DNA from: a virus
Lineage: Duplodnaviria; Heunggongvirae; Uroviricota; Caudoviricetes
DNA length: 42,651 nucleotides
IMG/VR virus record: IMGVR_UViG_2700989535_000001
Span: 1 to 42,651 of that record
Strand: one strand, 5' to 3'
Below the pieces are notes generated by a model. It was not told where the DNA came from, did not search any database, and worked only from the letters and a program-made list of their open reading frames with translations. Shown one piece after another: positions 1 to 42,651 of this stretch (position 1 is its first letter; every line of letters begins with the position of its first letter). Both the position numbers and the translations under genes were made by a program.

Positions 1-1248
1 ATGGCACTGAATATTCCATTCAGAAATGCGTACTATCGTTTTGCATCCAGTTACTCATTTCTCTTTTTTATTTCCTGGTCGCTGTGGTGGTCGTTATACG
101 CTATTTGGCTGAAAGGACATCTAGGGTTGACAGGGACGGAATTAGGTACACTTTATTCGGTCAACCAGTTTACCAGCATTCTATTTATGATGTTCTACGG
201 CATCGTTCAGGATAAACTCGGTCTGAAGAAACCGCTCATCTGGTGTATGAGTTTCATCCTGGTCTTGACCGGACCGTTTATGATTTACGTTTATGAACCG
301 TTACTGCAAAGCAATTTTTCTGTAGGTCTAATTCTGGGGGCGCTATTTTTTGGCTTGGGGTATCTGGCGGGATGCGGTTTGCTTGATAGCTTCACCGAAA
401 AAATGGCGCGAAATTTTCATTTCGAATATGGAACAGCGCGCGCCTGGGGATCTTTTGGCTATGCTATTGGCGCGTTCTTTGCCGGCATATTTTTTAGTAT
501 CAGTCCCCATATCAACTTCTGGTTGGTCTCGCTATTTGGCGCTGTATTTATGATGATCAACATGCGTTTTAAAGATAAGGATCACCAGTGCGTAGCGGCA
601 GATGCGGGAGGGGTAAAAAAAGAGGATTTTATCGCAGTTTTCAAGGATCGAAACTTCTGGGTTTTCGTCATATTTATTGTGGGGACGTGGTCTTTCTATA
701 ACATTTTTGATCAACAACTTTTTCCTGTCTTTTATGCAGGTTTATTCGAATCACACGATGTAGGAACGCGCCTGTATGGTTATCTCAACTCATTCCAGGT
801 GGTACTCGAAGCGCTGTGCATGGCGATTATTCCTTTCTTTGTGAATCGGGTAGGGCCAAAAAATGCATTACTTATCGGAGTTGTGATTATGGCGTTGCGT
901 ATCCTTTCCTGCGCGCTGTTCGTTAACCCCTGGATTATTTCATTAGTGAAGTTGTTACATGCCATTGAGGTTCCACTTTGTGTCATATCCGTCTTCAAAT
1001 ACAGCGTGGCAAACTTTGATAAGCGCCTGTCGTCGACGATCTTTCTGATTGGTTTTCAAATTGCCAGTTCGCTTGGGATTGTGCTGCTTTCAACGCCGAC
1101 TGGGATACTCTTTGACCACGCAGGCTACCAGACAGTTTTCTTCGCAATTTCGGGTATTGTCTGCCTGATGTTGCTATTTGGCATTTTCTTCTTGAGTAAA
1201 AAACGCGAGCAAATAGTTATGGAAACGCCTGTACCTTCAGCAATATAG
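1..1248 (+). CDS. cscB: LacY-family oligosaccharide:H+ symporter, sucrose permease-like (host gene)
   Basis: 415-aa ORF with about 12 hydrophobic segments; recalled near-identity to E. coli CscB and clear LacY-family blocks. The csc cluster is known to lie next to argW. Confidence 0.7.
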   Translation: MALNIPFRNAYYRFASSYSFLFFISWSLWWSLYAIWLKGHLGLTGTELGTLYSVNQFTSILFMMFYGIVQDKLGLKKPLIWCMSFILVLTGPFMIYVYEPLLQSNFSVGLILGALFFGLGYLAGCGLLDSFTEKMARNFHFEYGTARAWGSFGYAIGAFFAGIFFSISPHINFWLVSLFGAVFMMINMRFKDKDHQCVAADAGGVKKEDFIAVFKDRNFWVFVIFIVGTWSFYNIFDQQLFPVFYAGLFESHDVGTRLYGYLNSFQVVLEALCMAIIPFFVNRVGPKNALLIGVVIMALRILSCALFVNPWIISLVKLLHAIEVPLCVISVFKYSVANFDKRLSSTIFLIGFQIASSLGIVLLSTPTGILFDHAGYQTVFFAISGIVCLMLLFGIFFLSKKREQIVMETPVPSAI

Positions 1249-8144: not shown

Positions 8145-8537
8145 TCACTCCAGCTTTGCTTGTATGCCTTGTTTAGCATCGCTCAGGGGGATATCTCCTT
8201 CAGTTCTGACCATTCGCCTTAATACTTTCCTTAAGTCGATGTAAAGTTGAAGGTCTCCATTTGCTGCGGCATCAGCCATTTTTTGCCTGACAAGCAGTAA
8301 TGTTTCATACGGCTCAATAAGAATATCGTCATGAGTAATTAGGTGAAGCGTTGCCGCATCAACTATTCCTAGAGCTGCGCCAAGTATCAAAAATTCCCTG
8401 CTATTTTTGTCGCATGAGGAGATAAGCGTATTTAGCGCATATCTAATATTCTTTATAGCTGTTGTTAATGCTGCAATTTCTTCTATGGCGTCTTCTCCAA
8501 TGAGCTTTTTAAGCTCATATTTTTCTTCCTGACCCAT
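8145..8537 (-). CDS. Hypothetical protein directly downstream of N (130 aa)
   Basis: Start (MGQEEKYELKK...) 3 nt after the N stop; predicted soluble and helical; AT-rich; no recognisable family. Confidence 0.55.
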   Translation of the reverse strand: MGQEEKYELKKLIGEDAIEEIAALTTAIKNIRYALNTLISSCDKNSREFLILGAALGIVDAATLHLITHDDILIEPYETLLLVRQKMADAAANGDLQLYIDLRKVLRRMVRTEGDIPLSDAKQGIQAKLE

Positions 8538-8539
8538 AA

Positions 8540-8812
8540 TTACCTCGCCGTCAGTTGTTTTGATTTCCGGTAGCCTGCCGCGTAAAGAGCTACGTTTGGC
8601 AGGCAAATACTTCCACTGCGTTCATCTTCTTCCTTACAGCGAAGGCTTCCGAGTGATGCTGCTTTATCTGCTCTGACGCAACCAGAGAGCTTTAGCGCAA
8701 TTTTTCGCGCCAGTCGCTGTTCTTGCATTGCCTGCTCACGTTGAGCCTGTCTGCGTGCTCTGCGGCGATTTCTGGCGTTATCGTCAGCCAGATATGTAAT
8801 GACTACTGTCAT
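8540..8812 (-). CDS. N-like antitermination protein
   Basis: Arginine-rich motif near the N-terminus (NARNRRRARRQAQREQ) like the lambda N ARM; first gene of the leftward operon from the operator region. Start chosen at the internal Met MTVVITY. Confidence 0.6.
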   Translation of the reverse strand: MTVVITYLADDNARNRRRARRQAQREQAMQEQRLARKIALKLSGCVRADKAASLGSLRCKEEDERSGSICLPNVALYAAGYRKSKQLTAR

Positions 8813-9014
8813 GTTGACCTCCGATGATTGACTTTGGCGGTGACGTGACGGGGGGAGGGAGGTTAACTCCCTGATGCTGTCGCGCTGCTGCACTTCACAT
8901 CACCCCAAAGCCAACTACTCTTTGGTTCCCGCATTTCGGCGGGACAATCCCATCAATGTTAAAGAGCCTGCCAATCTGTTCCGTTTGGCTACCAGCGTCC
9001 TGCTGATGGCTAAA

Positions 9015-9056
9015 GAATACTGTAGGTATTTTATTGTGTAAATACCCAAGGTATTT
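9015..9056 (-). promoter_or_regulatory. PL/OL region: two operator dyads (AATACTGTAGGTATT, AATACCCAAGGTATT) overlapping a leftward promoter
   Basis: Dyads of the AATAC-N5-GTATT type spaced 25 bp apart, same motif as upstream of cro; minus-strand -35 TTTACA and -10 TATTCT with a 17-bp spacer. Confidence 0.6.
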
Positions 9057-9186
9057 ATTTTTGGTGAAATAATGATAAGCAAATGAATACAAAGGATATT
9101 TATTTTTTCGGTGTCTGCTTGTTCAGTGTTTTTTATGCGGGATATGTGAAGTGGATCCCGATAGCTATTGCTGCCGGGATTATGGT

Positions 9187-9555
9187 TTAGTCAGCGAAGG
9201 TTAAGACGAGAATTACCTTAATGATGTCTGCTACAACAGACACGGCCATAGATAAACCAAAGACAATCCAAGCCATAGAGATGTCTTCACTACCATCGTA
9301 TAGAGTTCCGTAATCACTGGTGTAAGGCGTAAATGTCGCGCCTTGATACAATAGGTATAAGCTTGATCCATAGAGGATAAATGCAGATATCCCTTGTATT
9401 GCTATGATCACCAGAATCATGAAACGAGCTGATCTATGCGCCCAAGCCTGGCTTATTTTTTCTGATAGAGATTTCGCAATAAAAGCATGCGCTAAGCCGT
9501 AAATTGTCGAGATTGCCAACATCCCAAAAAAGCTTGCTATAGCGGTTCCAACCAT
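9187..9555 (-). CDS. Small integral membrane protein (3 predicted TM helices) coupled to cI
   Basis: ATG at 9555 with AAGGGG SD, 18 nt after the cI stop (track ORF uses a TTG overlapping the cI stop); three hydrophobic segments of about 25 aa. Confidence 0.6.
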   Translation of the reverse strand: MVGTAIASFFGMLAISTIYGLAHAFIAKSLSEKISQAWAHRSARFMILVIIAIQGISAFILYGSSLYLLYQGATFTPYTSDYGTLYDGSEDISMAWIVFGLSMAVSVVADIIKVILVLTFAD

Positions 9556-9572
9556 AAGCGCCCCTTGCGTGA

Positions 9573-10289
9573 TCAAACCAGCCTTAGTTTTGTCTCAATT
9601 GCAACGCCTATAATCTTGCAGTTTCCATTGATAGGCACGAGAGGCCATGCAGGATTAAGTCCCTTGAGGTATTTATTTCCGCCGTCGATTATCAGCTTCT
9701 TGAATGTTGCTTCGTTAGAGTCAGAAAGTTTTGCTATGACCAAGCTGCCGTTGATCGCCTCCCTTCCGGTATCGAAAAGAACGAATGTTCCTTCTGGAAT
9801 GCTTAACCCAACCGGTGCCGTCATTGAATCACCTTCCACTTTAAGCCAGAACGCATTACCTTGAATATGCGCGTCAGACTCAAGCCAAACATCTATGTCT
9901 TTAATGGTGTATGGTTCGCATGCTTCACACCACGAGCCAGCCTGGATACTGCTTAACACCGGATACCTCTTTCCTGCTCTGTATTCCCCTGCATACCTTA
10001 CGTTGGCATCGCTCTTAAGGCTTTCTGCCTGTTCTGCAACCTTGGCAGCAATTGACTGGCTAAAATCAGCAATTGAGACTTGCAACAATCGTGCAAAACC
10101 AGATGCAACCTCAACGTTTAGCGCGTTTCTGCCATTAAGATAATGCCCTACCGCTCCTTGGGTGATACCCAGTTCATCAGCGATTGAGTATTGGGTTATT
10201 CCCAATTCTTTCTTTTTTGACTCATACAAAGCCTTAAGCCGCTTAGCGTCTTCGAGCTGTTCTGTCGTCAGTGATTTTTTATTTTCCAT
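9573..10289 (-). CDS. cI: CI-type prophage repressor (HTH plus LexA-like S24 peptidase domain)
   Basis: Recalled similarity to lambda CI throughout (TQEQLEDA.RLKA.YE.KK.ELG; FWL.VEG.SMTAP; FKKLI.D); divergent to cro across the operators. Confidence 0.9.
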   Translation of the reverse strand: MENKKSLTTEQLEDAKRLKALYESKKKELGITQYSIADELGITQGAVGHYLNGRNALNVEVASGFARLLQVSIADFSQSIAAKVAEQAESLKSDANVRYAGEYRAGKRYPVLSSIQAGSWCEACEPYTIKDIDVWLESDAHIQGNAFWLKVEGDSMTAPVGLSIPEGTFVLFDTGREAINGSLVIAKLSDSNEATFKKLIIDGGNKYLKGLNPAWPLVPINGNCKIIGVAIETKLRLV

Positions 10290-10324
10290 AGCTTAATTCT
10301 AATAGCTAAGGTACTTAAACTAAA

Positions 10325-10366
10325 AATACCCTGAGTATTGATTGCTTTGAATACCTGTAGTATTCT
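10325..10366 (+). promoter_or_regulatory. OR/PR region: two operator dyads (AATACCCTGAGTATT, AATACCTGTAGTATT) overlapping the rightward promoter
   Basis: Same dyad family as at OL; -35 TTGATT and -10 TATTCT with a 17-bp spacer, followed by GGAGAG SD and cro. Confidence 0.6.
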
Positions 10367-10395
10367 TTGTTCATGGTTAATAACGGAGAGTGCAT

Positions 10396-10590
10396 ATGAT
10401 TCGAATGACACTTGCCGATTACGCCAAAATCCATGGACAGGCTAAAGCAGCCAGTGACTTTGGTGTAATCCAGTGCGCTATCAGCAAGGCCATTCTGGCA
10501 GGCCGTAACATCATGGTTACGGTAAAGCCTGATGGCAGTGTGATTGGAGAGGAAGTTCGTCCTTTCCCAAGCAACAAGAAAAACAAATAG
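10396..10590 (+). CDS. cro: Cro repressor
   Basis: Recalled similarity to lambda Cro (TL.DYA...GQ.K.A.D.GV.Q.AI.KAI.AGR.I...DGSV..EEV.PFPSNKK); first ATG 5 nt after the SD. Confidence 0.85.
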
Positions 10591-18095: not shown

Positions 18096-18419
18096 ATGAA
18101 GATGCCAGAAAAACATGACCTGTTAGCTGCCATTCTCGCGGCAAAGGAACAAGGCATCGGGGCAATCCTTGCGTTTGCAATGGCGTACCTTCGCGGCAGA
18201 TATAATGGCGGTGCGTTTACAAAAACAGTAATCGACGCAACGATGTGCGCCATTATCGCCTGGTTCATTCGTGACCTTCTCGACTTCGCCGGACTAAGTA
18301 GCAATCTCGCTTATATAACGAGCGTGTTCATCGGCTACATCGGTACTGACTCGATTGGTTCGCTTATCAAACGCTTCGCTGCTAAAAAAGCCGGAGTAGA
18401 AGATGGTGGAAATCAATAA
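18096..18419 (+). CDS. S: Holin S (dual-start S107/S105)
   Basis: [22 protein letters not shown]...; recalled near-identity to lambda S, including the Met-Lys-Met dual-start motif. Confidence 0.9.
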
Positions 18420-18879
18420 TCAACGTAAGGCGTTCCTCGATATGCTGGCGTGGTCAGAGGGAACTGATAACGGACGTCAGAAAACCAGAAATCATGGTTA
18501 TGACGTCATTGTTGGCGGAGAGCTATTCACTGATTACTCCGATCACCCTCGCAAACTTGTCACGCTAAACCCAAAACTCAAATCAACAGCCGCCGGACGT
18601 TACCAGCTTCTTTCCCGTTGGTGGGATGCCTATCGTAAGCAGCTTGGCCTGAAAGACTTCTCTCCGAAAAGCCAGGACGCTGTGGCATTGCAGCAGATTA
18701 AGGAGCGTGGCGCTTTGCCGATGATTGATCGTGGTGATATTCGTCAGGCAATTGACCGTTGCAGCAATATCTGGGCTTCACTGCCGGGCGCTGGTTATGG
18801 TCAGTTCGAGCATAAGGCTGACAGCCTGATTGCAAAATTCAAAGAGGCTGGCGGAACGGTCAGAGAGATTGAGGTATGA
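18403..18879 (+). CDS. R: Endolysin R (lytic transglycosylase)
   Basis: 158-aa ORF recalled as near-identical to lambda R; overlaps the S stop. Confidence 0.9.
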
Positions 18880-19343
18880 GCAGAGTAACCGCGATTATCT
18901 CCGCTCTGATTATCTGCATCGTCGTCTGTCTGTCGTGGGCGGTTAATCATTACCGTGATAACGCCATCGCCTACAAAGAGCAGCGCGATAAAAAAGTCAG
19001 TGAGCTGAAGCAGGCGACCGCCACCATTACTGACATGCAGCAACGCCAGCGTGCTGCTGATGCACTCGATGCTAAATACACGAAGGAGTTAGCTGATGCG
19101 AAAGCTGAAAATGATGCTCTTCGGCGCAAGCTTGATAATGGTGGCAGGGTGCTCGTCAAAGGAAAATGCCCTGTGCCATCCTCAGCCGAAACCTCCGGCG
19201 CCTCCGGCATGGGCAATGATGCCACCGTCGAACTCTCTCCAGTTGCTGGACGAAACGTTCTCGGTATCCGGGACGGAATTATCCGCGACCAAACATCACT
19301 GAGAACGCTTCAGGAATACATCAGGACGCAATGCCTTCGATGA
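18876..19343 (+). CDS. Rz: Spanin, inner-membrane subunit Rz
   Basis: N-terminal TM helix ([18 protein letters not shown]), coiled-coil body; lambda Rz-like. Confidence 0.85.
19096..19302 (+). CDS. Rz1: Spanin, outer-membrane lipoprotein subunit Rz1 (embedded in Rz, +1 frame)
   Basis: Embedded ORF with lipobox (LIMVAGCSS) and Pro-rich tract, as for lambda Rz1. Confidence 0.7.
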
Positions 19344-32799: not shown

Positions 32800-34796
32800 T
32801 GGCTAAAGCATGGAAAGATGTTATCGCCTCTCCACAGTATCAGGCGTTAGCACCAGAACAAAAAGCGCAGGCTCAGGAGCAATACTTCAATGAAGTCGTG
32901 GCCCCGCAAGCCGGAGAAAATGCAGAGCAGGCTAAGCAAGCTTTCTATGCTGCCTATCCATTGCCATCTGTGCAGCCAGTGGAGACACAACAACCAGTAG
33001 CACAGCAACAACCACAGCAAAGCGGATTTATGTCTGATCTTGGTGAAGCAGTAAAAGAGACTGGTCGCGGACTGGTGCAGGCTGGCGTGAACGTGGCAAA
33101 CATACCTGCATCAGTTGCCGATGCTGTAACAAGCGCGGCGGCTTGGGCTGGCGGTAAACTCGGCATTGGCGATGGTACATATCAACCAGCGCCACGAGTA
33201 ACAACGCAGGGATTAGAGCAGGACTTTGGCCTTCAGCAAGGCGCGCTGACTCCACAAACGACAGAGGGAAGGGTATTTGCTGAAGCATTGCCTTACCTCA
33301 CTCCTGCTGGCGTTGAGAGAGCGGCGGTACAGGCACCAACACTTGCTGGTCGAATTGCTCAGGGGGCAACTCGCCTTCTCGCAGAAAACGCAGTTGGATC
33401 ACTTGCTGCAAACAGTATGAAAGATGATGCGGAAGCACTCGCCACCGATTTAGGCGTTGGTGTACTTGCTGGCGGTGCTATTAACGCTGCCGGACGTGGA
33501 TTAGGTGCTGCTTATCGTGGCGTTCGTGGTGCTATCGCGCCAGAAGCGCAGCAGGCTATCAGATTTGCAGAGCGTGAAGGAATTCCTCTGCACACCACAG
33601 ACCTGTTACAACCCACTTCCCGCGTCGGAAAAATGGCGCAGACTACAGCAGAAAATATCCCTCTGGCTGGCACAAGCGGAATGAGAGCAACGCAACAGGA
33701 AGCGAGAAGCCAGTTGGTGCAGAGATTTGCTGATAAATTCGGTGAGTATGATCCAGCGGTTGTTATTGACAGCCTTAAAGCGAAAACATCAGGAATTCGT
33801 CGTGCCGCCGGTAATCGACTGGAGCAGGTTCAGAATGCTATGGCTGGAGTAAACATTCAGCCTGCGCGAGCAATTCAGCAGATTGATACAGAAATATCTA
33901 ATCTGCAGAAGCTTGGTAAGGTCGCCGATAACGAGACTATTTCAAAACTTCAGTCCTATCGTGATGAGCTTGTTCGCAATGCTGGGCCTGATGGTCCGGT
34001 AAATCTGGATTTGAAGCAATTAAGCGATCTGCGCAGCCAGTTCAGAATGGACGTGAAGGGTGAGAGACCAGTGTTACCAAACCGTTCCGATGCTGCCATT
34101 CAGCGCGTTTACAAGGCAATGACCGACGATATCAATGGTGCCATTGGTCAGAATCTTGGCAACGATACTCTCCGTAAATATCAGCAGGCCAATGCAGTCT
34201 ACGCTGACGAAGCAGCGAAACTAAAGAATACCAGGCTGAAGAATGTTCTCATGAAAGGCGACCTGACGCCGGAAGTTGTGAATAACATGCTATTCAGCAA
34301 GAACAAATCGGAAATCAAGACGCTGTATAACTCAGTTGGTCGCGTTGGAAGAGCGCAAATGCGCAATGGCATCATTGGAAAGGCGATGGAGAAATCTGGC
34401 GGATCCCCTGACCAGTTCCTTCGGCAGCTTAATATCCTGCAAAACCAGACTGGCATCACATTTAAAGGTCAGGAAGCCGCTTATCTGAAAGGATTGAAAA
34501 ACTACCTGCAATCCACGCAGCAGGCTGCAAAAGCAGCAGTAACAACACCAACAGGGCAGCAAACCATACCGTTCATTATCGGATATGGGACGGCAATGAA
34601 CCCTGCAACAACTGGAGCAGCAGTAAGCTACGGACTTCTTGCTCGCGCCTATGAGAGTGAGCCATTCAGAAATGCAATGCTACGAATGGCAAATACCCAA
34701 CGCGGATCAACAGCGTTTGAGAAAGCCATGCAGCAGGCACAAAAGGCCATTAACGCCCTGACTCAGGGGGCTAAGTCTGATGCGCTGTCAGAATAG
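32799..34796 (+). CDS. Ejection protein (P22 gp16-like)
   Basis: 665-aa ORF in the conserved position, overlapping the gp20-like stop. Confidence 0.7.
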   Translation: MAKAWKDVIASPQYQALAPEQKAQAQEQYFNEVVAPQAGENAEQAKQAFYAAYPLPSVQPVETQQPVAQQQPQQSGFMSDLGEAVKETGRGLVQAGVNVANIPASVADAVTSAAAWAGGKLGIGDGTYQPAPRVTTQGLEQDFGLQQGALTPQTTEGRVFAEALPYLTPAGVERAAVQAPTLAGRIAQGATRLLAENAVGSLAANSMKDDAEALATDLGVGVLAGGAINAAGRGLGAAYRGVRGAIAPEAQQAIRFAEREGIPLHTTDLLQPTSRVGKMAQTTAENIPLAGTSGMRATQQEARSQLVQRFADKFGEYDPAVVIDSLKAKTSGIRRAAGNRLEQVQNAMAGVNIQPARAIQQIDTEISNLQKLGKVADNETISKLQSYRDELVRNAGPDGPVNLDLKQLSDLRSQFRMDVKGERPVLPNRSDAAIQRVYKAMTDDINGAIGQNLGNDTLRKYQQANAVYADEAAKLKNTRLKNVLMKGDLTPEVVNNMLFSKNKSEIKTLYNSVGRVGRAQMRNGIIGKAMEKSGGSPDQFLRQLNILQNQTGITFKGQEAAYLKGLKNYLQSTQQAAKAAVTTPTGQQTIPFIIGYGTAMNPATTGAAVSYGLLARAYESEPFRNAMLRMANTQRGSTAFEKAMQQAQKAINALTQGAKSDALSE

Positions 34797-34885
34797 CTTC
34801 GCAAACACCAGGAACGTGCAAAAGCCAAATATGTAGAATGCAATATTCAGCATATCTCTTTGCATAAATCCTCCGTAACTGATGG

Positions 34886-35146
34886 TTAACTGCTGTCTTT
34901 TTTATATAGCTCTTTGAGAGTATCAAAGACAATTTTCTTAACCATATCAGATTGTTGTTCTGCCATACGCTCTGCATCGTCAATGTAAACTGATGCAGAG
35001 CTTTGTTTAGCCAATGATTCTTCAATCGCTGCAATTATCTCTGAGTTCAGCGACCTGTTATTCATCTTCGCACGCTGCTTAATTTTCGCGTGGAGTTCAT
35101 GCGGAAGTCTCAAGTGAAACTGCGCCTCGTCGTATTTGCTGTACAT
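34886..35146 (-). CDS. mnt: Mnt-like ribbon-helix-helix repressor (orphan; no arc/ant)
   Basis: Recalled similarity to P22 Mnt (F.RMP.E...K.RA..N.RS.NSE...NDAERLA.EQS.LVKK.VFDTLK.LYKK); divergent to the tailspike gene. Confidence 0.7.
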   Translation of the reverse strand: MYSKYDEAQFHLRLPHELHAKIKQRAKMNNRSLNSEIIAAIEESLAKQSSASVYIDDAERMAEQQSDMVKKIVFDTLKELYKKDSS

Positions 35147-35267
35147 GCTTGATGCCTCACCAGTTGGGTGGAATGGCATCGTAACCTACTGGATAAATAC
35201 TCAATAGTACCATTTCGGTATGCAATCACATCATGGTTGCATCATATCATTCGTCTGGAGCAATGAA

Positions 35268-37389: not shown

Positions 37390-38820
37390 TTATTTTAACT
37401 TTATTACAATAATGTCTTTGGTTGCATGAATGCTATATATATTATTGTCAGAAATTAGATTCCCATTATCTGATATTGATACAGCTTTGTCTGCAGCTGA
37501 TGGCTCAGCGCTAACAACATCTTTTAGTCCATTTCTCATCAATGTAAAAACTCCGCCATCATATCTATTTGTAAATATAGGTGGCAATATATCAGATATT
37601 ACTGGAAATATTTTCTTGTTTATGCTTGCGACAGATGAGTTCTTCGCGTAGCCGTCAATAACAATAAAATCGAGATATTTGGCTTTACTATTATTAATAT
37701 CATTGATCATTTGAAGTGATAAATTATTTTGGAATTTAAATTCTTCTCGTGAAGCATTAATTGTCGCAAAGAATATGGACAGCATGGGAATTGCAATGAA
37801 TAATGACAGCAAGTAATTAATTCTCCAATTAAGGATCACTGAGCCAATCAAAGGAAGCGCCATTATAAAGACACCAAATCCGATAAATATCCTTGATACA
37901 AATACTGGTGATTTGCCAAACACAGACACACCAAAAGAGGAAAAGAAGCAACCAAATATAGATATTGCAATAAAAAATAGTAATTGAAATTTCTTTCGTT
38001 TAATAGCGAAAAACACAGATGATATGGCTATTATTGATAGAAATATATAAAGAGGTATTCCAATACCACTATGAAGAGCAACATCAATTTTTCTAACTGC
38101 GTTAATTATATTCTCATAAACATTGATGACTCCACCTTTATTTAATTCAACTATTTGAGCATATTTCGAGAAGTTATTGTTTAAAGATAATGATTCAAGT
38201 ATTAATTTTGAGTATATAATATATGAAGAGACTACACATGTGACAGATAATAGCACTCTGCTGGCTATTGATGTAAACTTTTCCCCTTTCAATGCTTCCA
38301 TTGCAACCACTACTGATGCAAGCCCAATGTACACATTTATTGAGGCCTGATACAATCCAAGCGATATTGTTAGGCACAGTAGTGATGATATGGCGAATGT
38401 TCTACTTTTTGTAAAAATGAATGGAATAGCAGAAAGTGCAATAGATAAAATCATAAATGCACCATCATATCTAAATAGCATATTAGACAAAAGAAAAGGG
38501 TTAAGCATAAATATTGCAAAAGTTATATTAACTATAACCCCATCTTTTGATAGTATATTTTGCAATGCCTTTGTTAGTGATATAACAAGAAGCACAGACG
38601 TTAAAACTAGTGGTAGTGGGTAAATATCTGGTATGCTTTCAGATCTAAAGAAAATAAATGATTTATAGAATAAATCTGCAAAAGGCCTTCCATCTTCAGA
38701 CCAACCATAATATCCCCAATACGATCTAAATACATCATCATAGTAGTAAATATTACATGTTATAATAAAAAACAAAATAACAAATAGTATGAAGTAGTTG
38801 ATTTTAATTGTTTTATTCAT
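37390..38820 (-). CDS. Serotype-specific O-antigen glucosyltransferase (GtrC-type polytopic membrane protein)
   Basis: 476-aa ORF with many TM segments, immediately downstream of gtrB in an operon; very AT-rich. Confidence 0.65.
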
Positions 38821-39737
38821 TTTTTCTTTCTCTTAACAATGAATCTAGGTCTATCTTTGCACTCTATGTAAATTCTTCCTATATATTCACCAAGCACGCC
38901 AATTCCAATGAGTTGAATCCCTCCTAAGAAAAGAATGGACACAATAAGTGATGGGTATCCCCTAACCGGATTGCCAAAAACCAAAGTGTCGATAATCATC
39001 CATGTGCCATATAAAAGAGCCATTCCTGCGACGAATAGCCCAATATAAGTCCACATACGCAGAGGGAAAGTGGAAAAGCTTGTTATACCTTCAAGTGCTA
39101 GGTTCCATAATTTCCACCCATTGAATTTCGTGCTGCCAGCTACACGCTCAGCACGGACATACTCAACAACATCTGTATCCCCACCAACCCAACTAAGAAT
39201 ACCTTTCATGAAAAGATTGCGTTCTGGCAGGAGCTTAATATTCTCCACTACCTCGCGAGACATCAGCCTGAAATCTCCAACATTTTCCTCTATCTGCGGA
39301 TTGCTTATTTTATTGTGGAGCTTATAGAACCACTCAGCCGTTTTTCGCTTCAGTCTGCCATCCGTTGAGCGGTCAGATCGTTTAGCAAGCACCATATCAG
39401 CGCCTGCCTGCCATTTTTCAATCAGTTGAGGTATTACCTCAATCGGGTCTTGCAGGTCAACATCAATAGGAATAACAGCATCGCCTGTTGCATGGTCTAA
39501 CCCTGCAAACAATGCTGGTTCTTTACCAAAGTTGCGCGTAAATGACAGCGGAACAACTAGCGGATCAGAAACAGCCAGAGCGTTAATTATTGACTCTGTA
39601 GAGTCTTTGCTGCCGTCATTTATGAAAACAATTTCCACCTCATATGGCTTCAACTCTTCGAATTCACGTACCGTTTTATAAAAAATTGGTATCGCTTCTT
39701 CTTCATTGAAGACAGGAACTACAAGAGATATCTTCAT
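38817..39737 (-). CDS. gtrB: Bactoprenol glucosyltransferase GtrB (GT2 family)
   Basis: Recalled near-identity to E. coli YfdH/GtrB ([17 protein letters not shown]...); two C-terminal TM helices. Confidence 0.9.
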
Positions 39738-40096
39738 TTCGCATCCCTAAAGACAATGAACTTTGAATATACGAAACCGCACACCAGGCTGATGGCGGAG
39801 AAAGTGATAAGGGTTAGCATCGGGGGAAGTGCGCATCTATCAGCAGCCCATCCAACAGTTGCACTCAGTGTTCCCATGAACCCGACATATAACATGTAGC
39901 GCATCGTTGTAGTCGATGCTTTGAATGTGAATTTTGCATTCGCGAAGAAGCTAAAACTCACAGCCACAACGAAACCTGCGAAGTTTGCCAGAGCCTGATT
40001 TGTATGCGCGGCATAGATACATACACCAAAAACCACCCAGTGTATAAGTGTGTTCAGCACACCAATCGAGGTGTACTTTGCAAATAGCTTTAACAT
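39734..40096 (-). CDS. gtrA: GtrA flippase (bactoprenol-linked glucose translocase)
   Basis: 120-aa 4-TM protein; recalled near-identity to E. coli YfdG/GtrA. Confidence 0.9.
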
Positions 40097-40249: not shown

Positions 40250-41407
40250 TCACTCCACATTTTCATCAATCCAGTCCGCCCACCATTGCATCATTTCTCT
40301 GCGTTTATCGAGATACTGAGCATGGTTGTAAATCCCGCGCACAGATCCGCCGTTGGCATGTGCCAGTTGCACTTCAATAGCATCAGCAGGCCATTCGTGC
40401 TCGTTCATAATCGTGCTGAATTCATGCCTGAATCCGTGACCGCTTTCCAGACCCTCATAGCCGATTTGTTTGATCACAAGCAATACCGCGTTCTCGCAGA
40501 TTGGCTTCTTCTTATCGTTGCGCCCGGCAAAAACAAACTCTGATACTGGTTTGGTGATTGAGCTTAGCGTAGTGAGAAGTTCAACTACCTGGTCTGACAT
40601 AGGAACCACATGAATTTTGCGTCCCTTCATCACATTGGCGTCGATGGTGATAATCCTGTTTTCAAAATCGACGTTCTTCCATTGCATGGAACGAAGCTCT
40701 TTCGTTCTTAGGGCTGTGTAGCGTAAAACTTTGGTCGCAATGAGCGATACGATACTTCCTGAAAATGTTGCCAGTGCTTTGTTGAATGCAGGGATCTGGT
40801 CTGCAGGAAGAAACGGGAAGTTCTTCTTGCGGTATCCCTTCATGGCGTCAGCAAGGTCAGGTGCCGGGTTATATTTAGCCCTGCCGGTGACAATAGCGTA
40901 ACGGAAAACCTCGCCGCATCTTCTGCGGGCTTTGTTGGCTCTCTCCATTGCGCCGCGATCTTCAAATCTGCGGATTACTTCCAGCAGTTGCATCGGCTCA
41001 ATATCTTGAATTTCAAGGCCGCCGATGATAGGTAAAATGTCGTCATCAAACATTTTTGCAAGTTCAGTCGCATACCCTACTGACCATACTTGCTTCTTGT
41101 GCTCGTACCATTCTTTGTAAATCGCACTAAAGGAATTGTTGTTAGACGAAGCCTTTTTCGCTTTTACCGGATCGATGCCAACCGAGATGTCTTTCCTCGC
41201 AGTCCATGCTTTATCCCTTGCCTCCTGCAAAGTCATAAGCGGATATTTTCCTACGGTCAGTATTTTTTCCTTACCGTCAATCTTGTAGCGAAGCTGCCAT
41301 ACCTTTTTCCCGGATACAGGGACATAAAGGTACAGGCCATTACCATCGAGAAGGCGGTATGGTTTTTCTTTCGGCTTTGCTGCTTCAATCTGCTTAACGG
41401 TGAGCAT
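40250..41407 (-). CDS. intS: Tyrosine integrase (P4-type, IntS-like)
   Basis: Recalled similarity to K-12 IntS from MLTVKQIEAAKPKEKPYRL; catalytic HGFRHEF and RGIYNHAQY motifs; adjacent to the tRNA and att core. Confidence 0.85.
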   Translation of the reverse strand: MLTVKQIEAAKPKEKPYRLLDGNGLYLYVPVSGKKVWQLRYKIDGKEKILTVGKYPLMTLQEARDKAWTARKDISVGIDPVKAKKASSNNNSFSAIYKEWYEHKKQVWSVGYATELAKMFDDDILPIIGGLEIQDIEPMQLLEVIRRFEDRGAMERANKARRRCGEVFRYAIVTGRAKYNPAPDLADAMKGYRKKNFPFLPADQIPAFNKALATFSGSIVSLIATKVLRYTALRTKELRSMQWKNVDFENRIITIDANVMKGRKIHVVPMSDQVVELLTTLSSITKPVSEFVFAGRNDKKKPICENAVLLVIKQIGYEGLESGHGFRHEFSTIMNEHEWPADAIEVQLAHANGGSVRGIYNHAQYLDKRREMMQWWADWIDENVE

Positions 41408-41568
41408 GGGTAAAAATCCGGTGGGTAAAATTATTTTATCCACTTTTTACCCGTCATGGAGTGCGGCTGTCAACGATCTGACGCGAACCATTACGAACTG
41501 TGAATCTACGGAAGGCTTGATATTCAGGGGATTTTGCGGACTGGTACGGATGGGAGCGAACTGATAAA

Positions 41569-41583
41569 TGGTGTCCCCTGCAG
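41569..41583. repeat. att core copy (TGGTGTCCCCTGCAG) overlapping the tRNA-Arg 3' end
   Basis: Exact direct repeat of 1690..1704. Confidence 0.8.
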
Positions 41584-41643
41584 GAATCGAACCTGCAATT
41601 AGCCCTTAGGAGGGGCTCGTTATATCCATTTAACTAAGAGGAC
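41569..41643 (-). tRNA. argW: tRNA-Arg (anticodon CCU)
   Basis: 75-nt sequence whose reverse complement reads GTCCTCTTAGTTAAATGGATATAACGAGCCCCTCCTAAGGGCTAATTGCAGGTTCGATTCCTGCAGGGGACACCA with CCA end; cloverleaf-compatible. Confidence 0.9.
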
Positions 41644-41718: not shown

Positions 41719-42651
41719 TTATGCTGGGTTTTTATCATTTTTCTTAATGTTTTCCGCACGTTCTGCTTTTTGGCGTGCTTCTGCTTTACGCTTGTTGCTC
41801 ATGTCGTTACGAATCTGTGCATGACTCATTAACGCGAAGATAAAGGTGCCGCCGCAGATGTTCCCCGCTAAAGTAGGTAGTGCGAAGGGCCAGATGAAAT
41901 CGCTCCAGTGCAGCGTGCCGTTAAACACCAGATAGAGGATTTCAACAGAACCGACAACGATGTGGGTGGTGTCACCCAGTGCAATAAGCCAGGTCATCAA
42001 TATAATCACCACAATCTTTGCCGCACCCGCAGCAGGAAACATCCAAACCATAGTGGCGATCAGCCAGCCGGAAATGATCGCGTTGGCAAACATCTCGCTG
42101 GGGGTGTTCTTCATCACATCCATGCCGATTTTGACAAATGCATCGCGAGTTTCTTCATTGAAGATAGGCATATATTCAAATGCCCATGCAGCAATACCTG
42201 TCCCGAGAATATTACCCAGCAGCACGACGCCCCATAATCGCATAAGTAAGCCGACGTTGCTCATTGTCGGTTTTTGCATGACGGGTAGTACCGCAGTCAC
42301 GGTGTTTTCGGTAAATAATTGCTGGCGGGCCATAATGACGATAATAAAACCAAAGGTATAACCGAGATTCTCCAGTAAGAAGCTGCCTGGCACTCCTTCC
42401 AGTTCGACATGAAATATCCCTTTTGCCAGTAGCGAAGCGCCCATCGACAGACCCGCCGCAATGGCTGACCACAGTAGCGCCATTGCGTCGCGTTCCAGCT
42501 CTTTTTCACCATCCTGGCGGATATGCTCATGAATTGCCATCGCCCGGGAGGGGAGTCGGTCTTCATCTATTTCTATTTTTTTGCCGCGCTCTTTTTCTTC
42601 GCTCTCAACTTCAATTTCGTCGCTGTGTTGATCAATTTTGTCGTTGTCCAT
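41719..42651 (-). CDS. yfdC: Formate/nitrite-transporter-family inner membrane protein YfdC (host gene)
   Basis: 310-aa ORF recalled as E. coli YfdC; it is the known neighbour of argW. Confidence 0.8.
   Translation of the reverse strand: MDNDKIDQHSDEIEVESEEKERGKKIEIDEDRLPSRAMAIHEHIRQDGEKELERDAMALLWSAIAAGLSMGASLLAKGIFHVELEGVPGSFLLENLGYTFGFIIVIMARQQLFTENTVTAVLPVMQKPTMSNVGLLMRLWGVVLLGNILGTGIAAWAFEYMPIFNEETRDAFVKIGMDVMKNTPSEMFANAIISGWLIATMVWMFPAAGAAKIVVIILMTWLIALGDTTHIVVGSVEILYLVFNGTLHWSDFIWPFALPTLAGNICGGTFIFALMSHAQIRNDMSNKRKAEARQKAERAENIKKNDKNPA

Follow-up and report, generated by a model that had tools for sequence, protein, structure and literature searches.

HkaS, a predicted three-helix membrane protein encoded behind the repressor of Enterobacterales prophages, as a candidate phage-exclusion factor

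The SieA protein of phage P22, which has ~162 amino acids (aa) and three predicted transmembrane (TM) helices, resides in the inner membrane and is on its own sufficient to block DNA delivery, probably by interfering with the conduit of ejection proteins (PMC10883804). A second precedent concerns gene position, as the interval between the repressor gene cI and N is a mosaic hotspot that carries rexAB and bstA and profits from the highly active repressor promoter (PMC8585504). The gene considered herein, hkaS, lies in that interval in a 42,651-nucleotide (nt) stretch of viral DNA (Caudoviricetes; IMG/VR record IMGVR_UViG_2700989535_000001), the whole of which we refer to as the window. It is located on the minus strand at 9187-9555, directly behind cI (9573-10289, minus strand), and encodes 122 residues followed by a stop codon; its assignment as a coding sequence (CDS) is based on the open reading frame (ORF) call, a PHROG 6534 match, hydropathy, an AlphaFold2 model and purifying selection.

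Among the described systems SieA is the best mechanistic analogue of HkaS, as it too is expressed by a prophage, is predicted to have three TM helices and lacks a soluble domain. However, the SieA motif FxRYPxEAxxFNK (PMC10883804) is absent from HkaS, and sieA, a neighbour of immI and the tailspike gene, has a promoter of its own and is not part of the repressor operon. RexB of lambda shares with HkaS the slot between cI and the left operators (OL), presumably expression from the promoters pRM and pRE, and the character of a small polytopic inner-membrane protein present in the lysogen, but it has four TM helices, 144 aa and the partner RexA, whereas HkaS has three TM helices, 122 aa and no partner. 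BstA of phage BTP1 and other prophages resembles hkaS in being encoded by a single gene directly after the repressor with a presumed shared promoter (PMC8585504), although BstA is soluble, has ~300 aa, acts at sites of phage replication, is accompanied by an aba self-immunity element and has no similarity to HkaS. T4 Imm, SieB of lambda and P22, and class I holins are also small phage membrane proteins that affect entry or cell fate, yet they differ from HkaS in genomic position and expression programme.

An earlier note on this DNA had presented the ORF as a candidate for an uncharacterised superinfection-exclusion or abortive-infection determinant. The ORF has already been catalogued as hkaS of coliphage HK620 (AAK28867; record AF335538, 2001; product 'unknown') and as PHROG 6534 ('unknown function'; E 2.9e-79, residues 1-122 on profile positions 1-122 of 122). 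The RefSeq entry is WP_000233125, 'hypothetical protein'. HkaS of the window shares 97.5 % of its residues with its HK620 counterpart and 97.5-99 % with the products of annotated hkaS genes, so that the HK620 and window copies are the same gene in the same position between cI and tIMM/OL, with a few allelic substitutions. The ORF itself is thus already on record as a hypothetical, its kind, an accessory membrane protein of the repressor operon, is well known, and such a gene at this position will not surprise a specialist. What would be new, if it were found, is a function for a family that is an orphan in both sequence and fold.

Based on the data presented below, we hold with high confidence that HkaS is a real inner-membrane protein expressed in the lysogen. 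That it has some anti-phage function, as its location and architecture suggest, we regard as an even bet. The more specific reading that we favour from its context, in which HkaS blocks phage genome entry at the inner membrane, is given a probability of roughly 0.35.

The immunity operon and the expression of hkaS

The repressor gene, which encodes HTH_3 (Pfam, 8e-10) and Peptidase_S24 (5e-24) domains and is the first gene of the immunity operon, ends with a TGA at 9575-9573, and hkaS extends from an ATG at 9555-9553 to a TAA at 9189-9187. The two are separated by 17 nt (TCACGCAAGGGGCGCTT), which contain a Shine-Dalgarno sequence, AAGGGG (9561-9566, minus strand), 5 nt before the ATG, and an in-frame TTG (9574-9576, minus strand) that overlaps the cI stop is an alternative start that is probably unused. 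The start codon, Shine-Dalgarno sequence and overlapping TTG had all been read correctly in the earlier note. All diverged homologues are 122 codons long, and their Shine-Dalgarno sequence, AAGGA or GAGGG, occupies the equivalent position within a spacer of 17-20 nt that is otherwise unrelated between them. In two of these homologues, which are 61 % and 52 % identical (L083 and L087), there is an in-frame stop 0 and 5 codons, respectively, upstream of the equivalent ATG. The seven-residue TTG extension is therefore not conserved and, judged by this comparison, ATG 9555 is the true start of hkaS.

The further claim that hkaS is translationally coupled to cI is not supported in its strict form. 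hkaS has its own Shine-Dalgarno sequence. A predicted hairpin at the junction pairs the Shine-Dalgarno region with the last codons of cI; it is no more stable than shuffled sequence (z = +0.41) and we dropped it as evidence of coupling. Co-transcription of hkaS with cI is, on the other hand, almost certain, and we strongly infer that hkaS is made together with the repressor in the lysogen, as had been proposed. This is because the 17-20 nt spacing is conserved, no promoter-like site was found between cI and hkaS, and a terminator or hairpins follow hkaS, and because of the placement of tIMM in HK620 and the lambda precedent, in which the order is pRM-cI-rexA-rexB-tIMM.

In the lysogen the cI-hkaS transcript is presumed to originate at pRM in the right operator region, where an operator scan and the HK620 record place OR3 (10301-10315), OR2 (10325-10339) and OR1 (10350-10364; all plus strand) together with pR/pRM. 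There is no Shine-Dalgarno sequence before the ATG of cI, and OR3 lies 11 nt upstream. In this the gene resembles its lambda counterpart, the pRM transcript of which is leaderless. As the Shine-Dalgarno sequence of hkaS is strong, translation of hkaS may be at least equal to that of cI.

At the distal end of the operon, the HK620 record gives the order cI, hkaS, tIMM ('termination of cI transcript'), OL3-1, pL, nutL and N, with only ~100 nt of non-coding sequence between hkaS and the operators. This record and the operator scan bear out the placement of hkaS in the slot between cI and OL/PL and also its description as a solitary gene with no RexA-like partner, as it is 17 nt from cI on one side and followed on the other by non-coding sequence and operators only. 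The region annotated tIMM in HK620 corresponds to 9075-9105 (minus strand; AF335538 coordinates transferred by gap-free alignment) and includes a palindrome (9086-9100) that resembles an operator. OL1 (9016-9030) and OL2 (9041-9055; both minus strand) form the left boundary of the slot; they match AATACCNNNGGTATT with 1 and 0 mismatches, respectively, and overlap pL, a promoter-like site at 9042-9014 recognized by a promoter scan and by the HK620 annotation.

Seven nt after the hkaS stop, RNA folding predicts a GC-rich stem-loop without a U-tract (AUCCCGGCAGCAAUAGCUAUCGGGAU, 9155-9180, minus strand). Its stem is kept in a Hafnia-type copy (L171), and every diverged cassette has its own hairpin at the equivalent position. 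It is possible that this structure is the 3' end or a stabiliser of the immunity transcript, or else a variant of a Rho-independent terminator. The only canonical intrinsic terminator after hkaS among the cassettes is that of Buttiauxella (L113), where a GC stem followed by U6 (AACCCGGA...TCCGGGTTTTTT, fold z = -3.25) lies between hkaS and the operators.

Two additional observations concern this interval. The operator scan with AATACCNNNGGTATT returned right-hand sites at 10301, 10325 and 10350 and left-hand sites at 9016, 9041 and 9086. Of these, the left-hand site at 9086-9100, the third, has been conserved in diverged cassettes and lies within the tIMM region of HK620. The OL3 annotated in HK620 maps to 9062-9078 and matches the consensus poorly, and the third left operator may thus have been misplaced in the 2001 annotation. 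With CI bound immediately behind hkaS, read-through from pRM could also meet a roadblock. The second is a convergent, very hydrophobic ORF of 35 codons at 9083-9190 (plus strand; MNTKDIYFFGVCLFSVFYAGYVKWIPIAIAAGIMV), which overlaps the hkaS stop by 4 nt and is annotated in some phage records (e.g., HF4s_0039), with no family match. The possibility that it encodes a partner or a small toxin was discarded, as its ATG is inside the operator-like palindrome and as the cassettes of Salmonella and of the Hafnia type retain only ~10-12 codons of it and two others none; it is probably spurious.

Linkage to cI and the cargo of the slot

Region 8900-10400 of the window is 98.9-99.3 % identical to the immunity regions of related coliphages, namely HK620 (98.9 % over ~1.5 kb around hkaS), HF4s, mEpX2, HK140, HK630, HZ41, vB_EcoP-611R6, phi296, phi367 and two Stx2c phages. 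hkaS is present in 16 phage records, and its carriers span P22-like, lambda-like and Stx-converting phages. Among 5426 complete E. coli genomes, an hkaS probe found 146 (~2.7 %), at 147 places, and a cI probe likewise found 146 at 147 places. These equal numbers, which compare counts and not lists of genomes, fit with constant linkage of the two genes.

Genomic contexts were read for homologues in Salmonella, an unassigned metagenome contig, Hafnia-type contigs and an uncultured Buttiauxella genome, and wherever the context was readable, hkaS follows an S24 repressor gene at a distance of 17-20 nt and precedes the operators and N. Across the E. coli, Salmonella and metagenome cassettes cI is 86-89 % identical and HkaS 52-61 %, and since both genes have reached saturation at synonymous sites (pS 0.75-0.88), the pairing of cI with hkaS is by this measure old. 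The repressor itself is a mosaic, with an S24 half that is 86-88 % identical across cassettes and an N-terminal half that is 84 %, 64 % or 20 % identical. The lowest value comes from the Buttiauxella cassette (L113, 3007-4100), in which the N-terminal domain of cI is 20 % and the C-terminal domain 88 % identical, the operators look P22-like, and hkaS is 55 % identical and 20 nt behind cI. An obligate tie of hkaS to one immunity specificity is thereby refuted. In Siccibacter colletis (L089, 3001-5113) a cI C-terminal domain that is 86 % identical is followed by rexA-rexB, with rexA 112 nt behind cI compared with 17-20 nt for hkaS. The simplest reading of these cassettes is that hkaS is physically linked to the 3' half of cI, and recombination break-points would then fall within the linker of cI and behind the slot. 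The mosaic repressor, followed by hkaS in one cassette and by rexA-rexB in another, implies such points in the linker and at the slot boundaries.

It should be noted that such linkage bears on the possibility that HkaS has no role in defence but serves in lysogenic conversion or prophage housekeeping, with a membrane protein or protease of the host (e.g., a transporter or FtsH/HflKC) as its target, and alters host physiology or the establishment, maintenance or induction of lysogeny, as suggested earlier for RexA/RexB. A long association with the C-terminal half of cI, maintained even next to a different DNA-binding domain, is not that of a free cassette; hkaS shares the cI transcript, including that from pRE during establishment according to the HK620 annotation; and there is no signal of positive selection (see below). 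A preprint (10.1101/2021.04.19.439022) moreover reports that RexA/RexB help the transition from lysogeny to lytic growth. However, the Siccibacter locus combines the same cI C-terminal domain with rexAB, so the repressor does not need hkaS, no partner or target can be named, and most of the identifiable cargo of the slot is related to defence. We consider a role outside defence unlikely, though it deserves to be kept in mind.

The cargo of the slot was surveyed by reading the first same-strand ORF downstream of cI in 80 species-level cI relatives (40-76 % identical). In addition to RexA and RexB in Siccibacter, the slot contains BstA at two loci (L092 and L127; PADLOC, 1e-115 and 1e-112), the HipA-like kinase PDC-M03A (L134, 5e-119) and PDC-S42 (L096, 1e-84), and hkaS itself is found in one of the 80, that of Buttiauxella (hmmsearch, 4e-49). 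Other cargo comprises an NYN nuclease-like protein, a HATPase_c_3 protein, DUF6414 and DUF1275. The slot that hkaS occupies is hence enriched for defence genes, and the argument from position made in the earlier note turned out to be stronger than claimed, as relatives of this cI carry RexA/RexB, BstA, PDC-M03A and PDC-S42 exactly there. In four more relatives (L140, L141, L150 and L158) the slot holds three 135-aa proteins that resemble signal-peptide proteins, one with a lipobox-like motif (signal peptides and lipobox were read by eye), and an unrelated 122-aa zinc-ribbon membrane protein. None of the four has a significant family match, and they look like further uncharacterised exclusion candidates.

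Constraint, architecture and orphan status of HkaS

HkaS is under purifying selection and is a real gene rather than a chance ORF, as nonsynonymous changes, expected at 76.7 % of sites, are strongly under-represented. Polymorphic sites within the E. coli group comprise 19 nonsynonymous and 18 synonymous ones (n=37, p = 6.5e-4), and fixed differences from the Hafnia-type allele comprise 21 and 28, respectively (n=49, p = 3.6e-7), which correspond to omega values of ~0.32 for polymorphism and ~0.23 for fixed differences. In the same genomes omega is ~0.05 for cI, and amino-acid polymorphism is higher in hkaS than in cI (17/15 vs 6/31 codons, p = 0.002). hkaS thus evolves about five times faster than the repressor, with which both an arms race and relaxed constraint are compatible.

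The reading frame is also well maintained. The 82 close copies comprise 20 protein alleles, and the 122 codons are intact at 86 other loci (these 82, four Salmonella copies and L087), only HF4s being frameshifted, although the scanned loci are biased toward intact copies since the locus finder ranks by protein match. The copies in Buttiauxella and at L170-L172 also have 122 codons, and in complete E. coli genomes the two copies that diverge most carry the annotation of an intact CDS of 369 nt. Clusters of frameshifted proteins are rare, with one or two members each compared with 525, 53 and 45 in intact clusters. The frameshift in HF4s (L002), and that implied by protein clusters P0007 and P0009, lie in an A6 run near codon 33 (window ~9455-9535). 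In a compensated allele, P0005, the indels instead affect the G4 run of the Shine-Dalgarno sequence and a T-rich stretch close to codon 26. In all of these alleles the segment of the first TM helix (TM1) is read in another frame or lost. Since the frameshifted HF4s forms plaques, hkaS is dispensable for lytic growth.

These data also address whether hkaS might be a non-functional hydrophobic frame that is carried along with the 3' region of cI. In its favour are 25 years in databases with no function assigned, the occasional frameshift alleles (HF4s, P0005, P0007 and P0009) and the narrowness of the family. The strong nonsynonymous deficit in both comparisons above argues against it, as does the retention of length, Shine-Dalgarno sequence, topology and three motifs in homologues that are 46-61 % identical and in which synonymous sites are saturated, and as does an AlphaFold2 confidence of 92 obtained from only seven sequences. 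A non-functional frame is accordingly very improbable.

The three hydrophobic helices noticed at the outset are confirmed by both hydropathy and structure prediction. Kyte-Doolittle values in 19-residue windows exceed 1.6 at residues ~1-27, 42-68 and 91-122, and the AlphaFold2 model, from the seven-sequence alignment, has a mean predicted local distance difference test score of 92.3 and a predicted template-modelling score of 0.79, with long helices at 2-29, 41-73 and 89-121, a short amphipathic helix at 31-38 and a beta-hairpin in the loop at 74-88. As loop 1 is basic (K28, K33, R41 and R44) and loop 2 acidic (D81, D87, E90 and D91), the positive-inside rule predicts that the N-terminus is in the periplasm and the C-terminus in the cytoplasm. 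A cleavable signal peptide in TM1 (AHA at 22-24) was considered and rejected, because the motif is not conserved in homologues and the n-region lacks a positive charge.

Positions that are invariant among six HkaS lineages (46-83 % identical) fall into three clusters. The first, at the cytoplasmic loop and start of TM2, comprises K33, Q36, W38, H40 and A43-R44-F45, within a conserved, basic and amphipathic loop motif (KISQAWxHRxARF). The second, at the periplasmic end of TM2, comprises Y67-L-L-Y70 and T74, and the third, in TM3 and at the C-terminus, W96, F99, S106, D110, K113 and V117-L-T-F-A-D122. Q54 in TM2 is invariant as well, and together with D110 and K113 makes up an invariant polar set within the membrane. 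The least conserved region is the periplasmic loop, in which 2 of 20 positions are invariant.

Size and the predicted three-TM topology, with the N-terminus out and the C-terminus in, are reminiscent of class I holins such as lambda S, and HkaS could in principle be a holin, antiholin or other protein of lysis timing. However, no holin family in Pfam or PHROGs is matched by HkaS, and the protein has no charged C-terminal tail but ends with ..ILVLTFAD within TM3. Moreover, the gene is in the repressor operon and hence would be expressed in the lysogen. In E. coli S87, which has a copy of this immunity region, the late region carries a lambda-family holin, an endolysin and a lysis protein according to RefSeq, and ORFs of the size of a lysis cassette are present at the matching place in the window (18403-19343). 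A function in lysis timing is thus extremely improbable.

HkaS is a genuine orphan. Pfam (E <= 1) returned only sub-threshold matches to Cation_ATPase_C (19.2 bits compared with a cut-off of 27.3) and TssN, which we treat as noise from hydrophobic composition; NCBIfam gave no match, PADLOC-DB v2 no family at E <= 1, and a profile search of all PDB sequences no match at E <= 10. A word-index search of 5.8 billion clusters found 12 clusters that form a single family, from Escherichia, Salmonella, Hafnia and metagenomes, and an exhaustive hidden Markov model search of 1.84 billion representatives at 50 % identity found only the HkaS family and a 44-aa fragment. The family models of SieB (PF14163), T4 Imm (PF14373) and RexB (PF15968) were not matched at E <= 1, and hhalign gave probabilities of 0.2 % with a verified RexB (PF15968 at 9.7e-90), 0.3 % with P22 SieA and 0.1 % with P22 SieB. 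The initial failure to recognize RexB or SieB in this protein therefore stands, and profile searches produced no confident match to RexB or a holin.

Proposed mode of action and the surrounding prophage

We now put forward a mechanism for HkaS. We propose that hkaS is an accessory ('moron') gene that forms the second cistron of the prophage immunity operon, and that the pRM transcript of the lysogen and the pRE transcript made during establishment would both carry it along with cI. Its translation would start from a strong Shine-Dalgarno sequence of its own. At the cytoplasmic membrane HkaS would, acting alone, shield the lysogen from superinfecting phages by stopping the delivery of their genomes across the inner membrane, in the manner of P22 SieA or T4 Imm, and no cytoplasmic sensor would be involved. 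A passive block at the membrane is favoured over a sensor-triggered abortive infection (Abi) because HkaS lacks a soluble domain and hkaS a partner gene, and also because of the precedent of SieA. The hypervariable periplasmic hairpin would be compatible with a surface that meets incoming phage proteins. A more tentative extension, to which we give somewhat less credence, is that HkaS founds an anti-phage family of sensor-less inner-membrane proteins that plug or mis-assemble the DNA conduit, or gate a pore by means of the Gln/Asp/Lys set, with specificity determined by the hypervariable hairpin.

The principal alternative within defence is that HkaS is an Abi effector, i.e., a latent depolarising or lysis-promoting protein that behaves as a RexB without RexA and, when triggered by a membrane event of infection or a phage membrane protein, kills or arrests the lysogen. 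The invariant intramembrane residues Q54, D110 and K113 would suit a gated pore, rexAB occupy the same slot next to a nearly identical cI C-terminal domain in Siccibacter, and BstA, another occupant of the slot, is an Abi protein. Nevertheless, HkaS has three rather than four TM helices and, by the family-model and hhalign comparisons above (no Pfam match at E <= 1; 0.2 %), no homology to RexB. It also has neither a sensor partner nor a cytoplasmic domain with which to detect infection, and constant expression of a pore-former together with cI would require tight gating, for which no candidate regulator is present. We therefore regard an Abi effector as rather improbable and retain entry block at the inner membrane as the preferred reading.

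Several results weigh against the preferred reading of entry block. A search of a paper library for work on hkaS returned no phenotype, published test or other functional data, and no kinship in sequence or fold to known exclusion proteins was found. The slot is empty in P22 and elsewhere also holds genes with no known role in defence (DUF1275, NYN and ImmA-like), so that location in a hotspot is circumstantial. A McDonald-Kreitman test on hkaS shows no adaptive excess (p = 0.51), and the faster evolution of hkaS relative to cI may reflect relaxed constraint alone. Finally, the family is tiny and restricted to Enterobacterales prophages, which provides little comparative leverage.

The window as a whole is a complete P22-like (Lederbergvirus-type) prophage integrated at tRNA-Arg(CCT), with host flanks that encode a LacY-family permease and a formate/nitrite-transporter-family protein; the features at its ends lie at 1-1248 (plus strand) and at 37390-40096, 40250-41443, 41569-41643 and 41719-42651 (minus strand). 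At its right end are an integrase and a GtrC-like gene, the latter next to two ORFs of the size of GtrB and GtrA, apparently a gtrABC-type cluster for O-antigen modification. Such modification would be a second anti-superinfection function expressed by the lysogen from the same prophage. No sieA-type gene is present beside the tailspike gene of the window, where the interval 34796-35220 is too short. To the left of the operators, the N gene (8540-8893, minus strand; PHROG 271) is best read as a 90-aa form that starts with an ATG at 8812. Directly downstream of N is an ORF of ~130-153 aa (8145-8606, minus strand; PHROG 7374, unknown function) with no Pfam or PADLOC match and no obvious TM segment, at a position that sieB or genes of the ral region take in other lambdoid phages. 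A CDS just downstream of N in HF4s is labelled 'TM helix-containing protein' and was matched to this ORF by position only.

If HkaS were to have no anti-phage role, it would be a counter-example to guilt by location at a repressor-adjacent hotspot. If it does exclude phages, a tiny orphan family of single genes would join the short list of inner-membrane exclusion proteins, one that current defence-finder models miss and that would be relevant to the host range of therapeutic phages in E. coli. HkaS would then provide a tractable model for the arrest of phage genome entry by three helices that lack a soluble domain.

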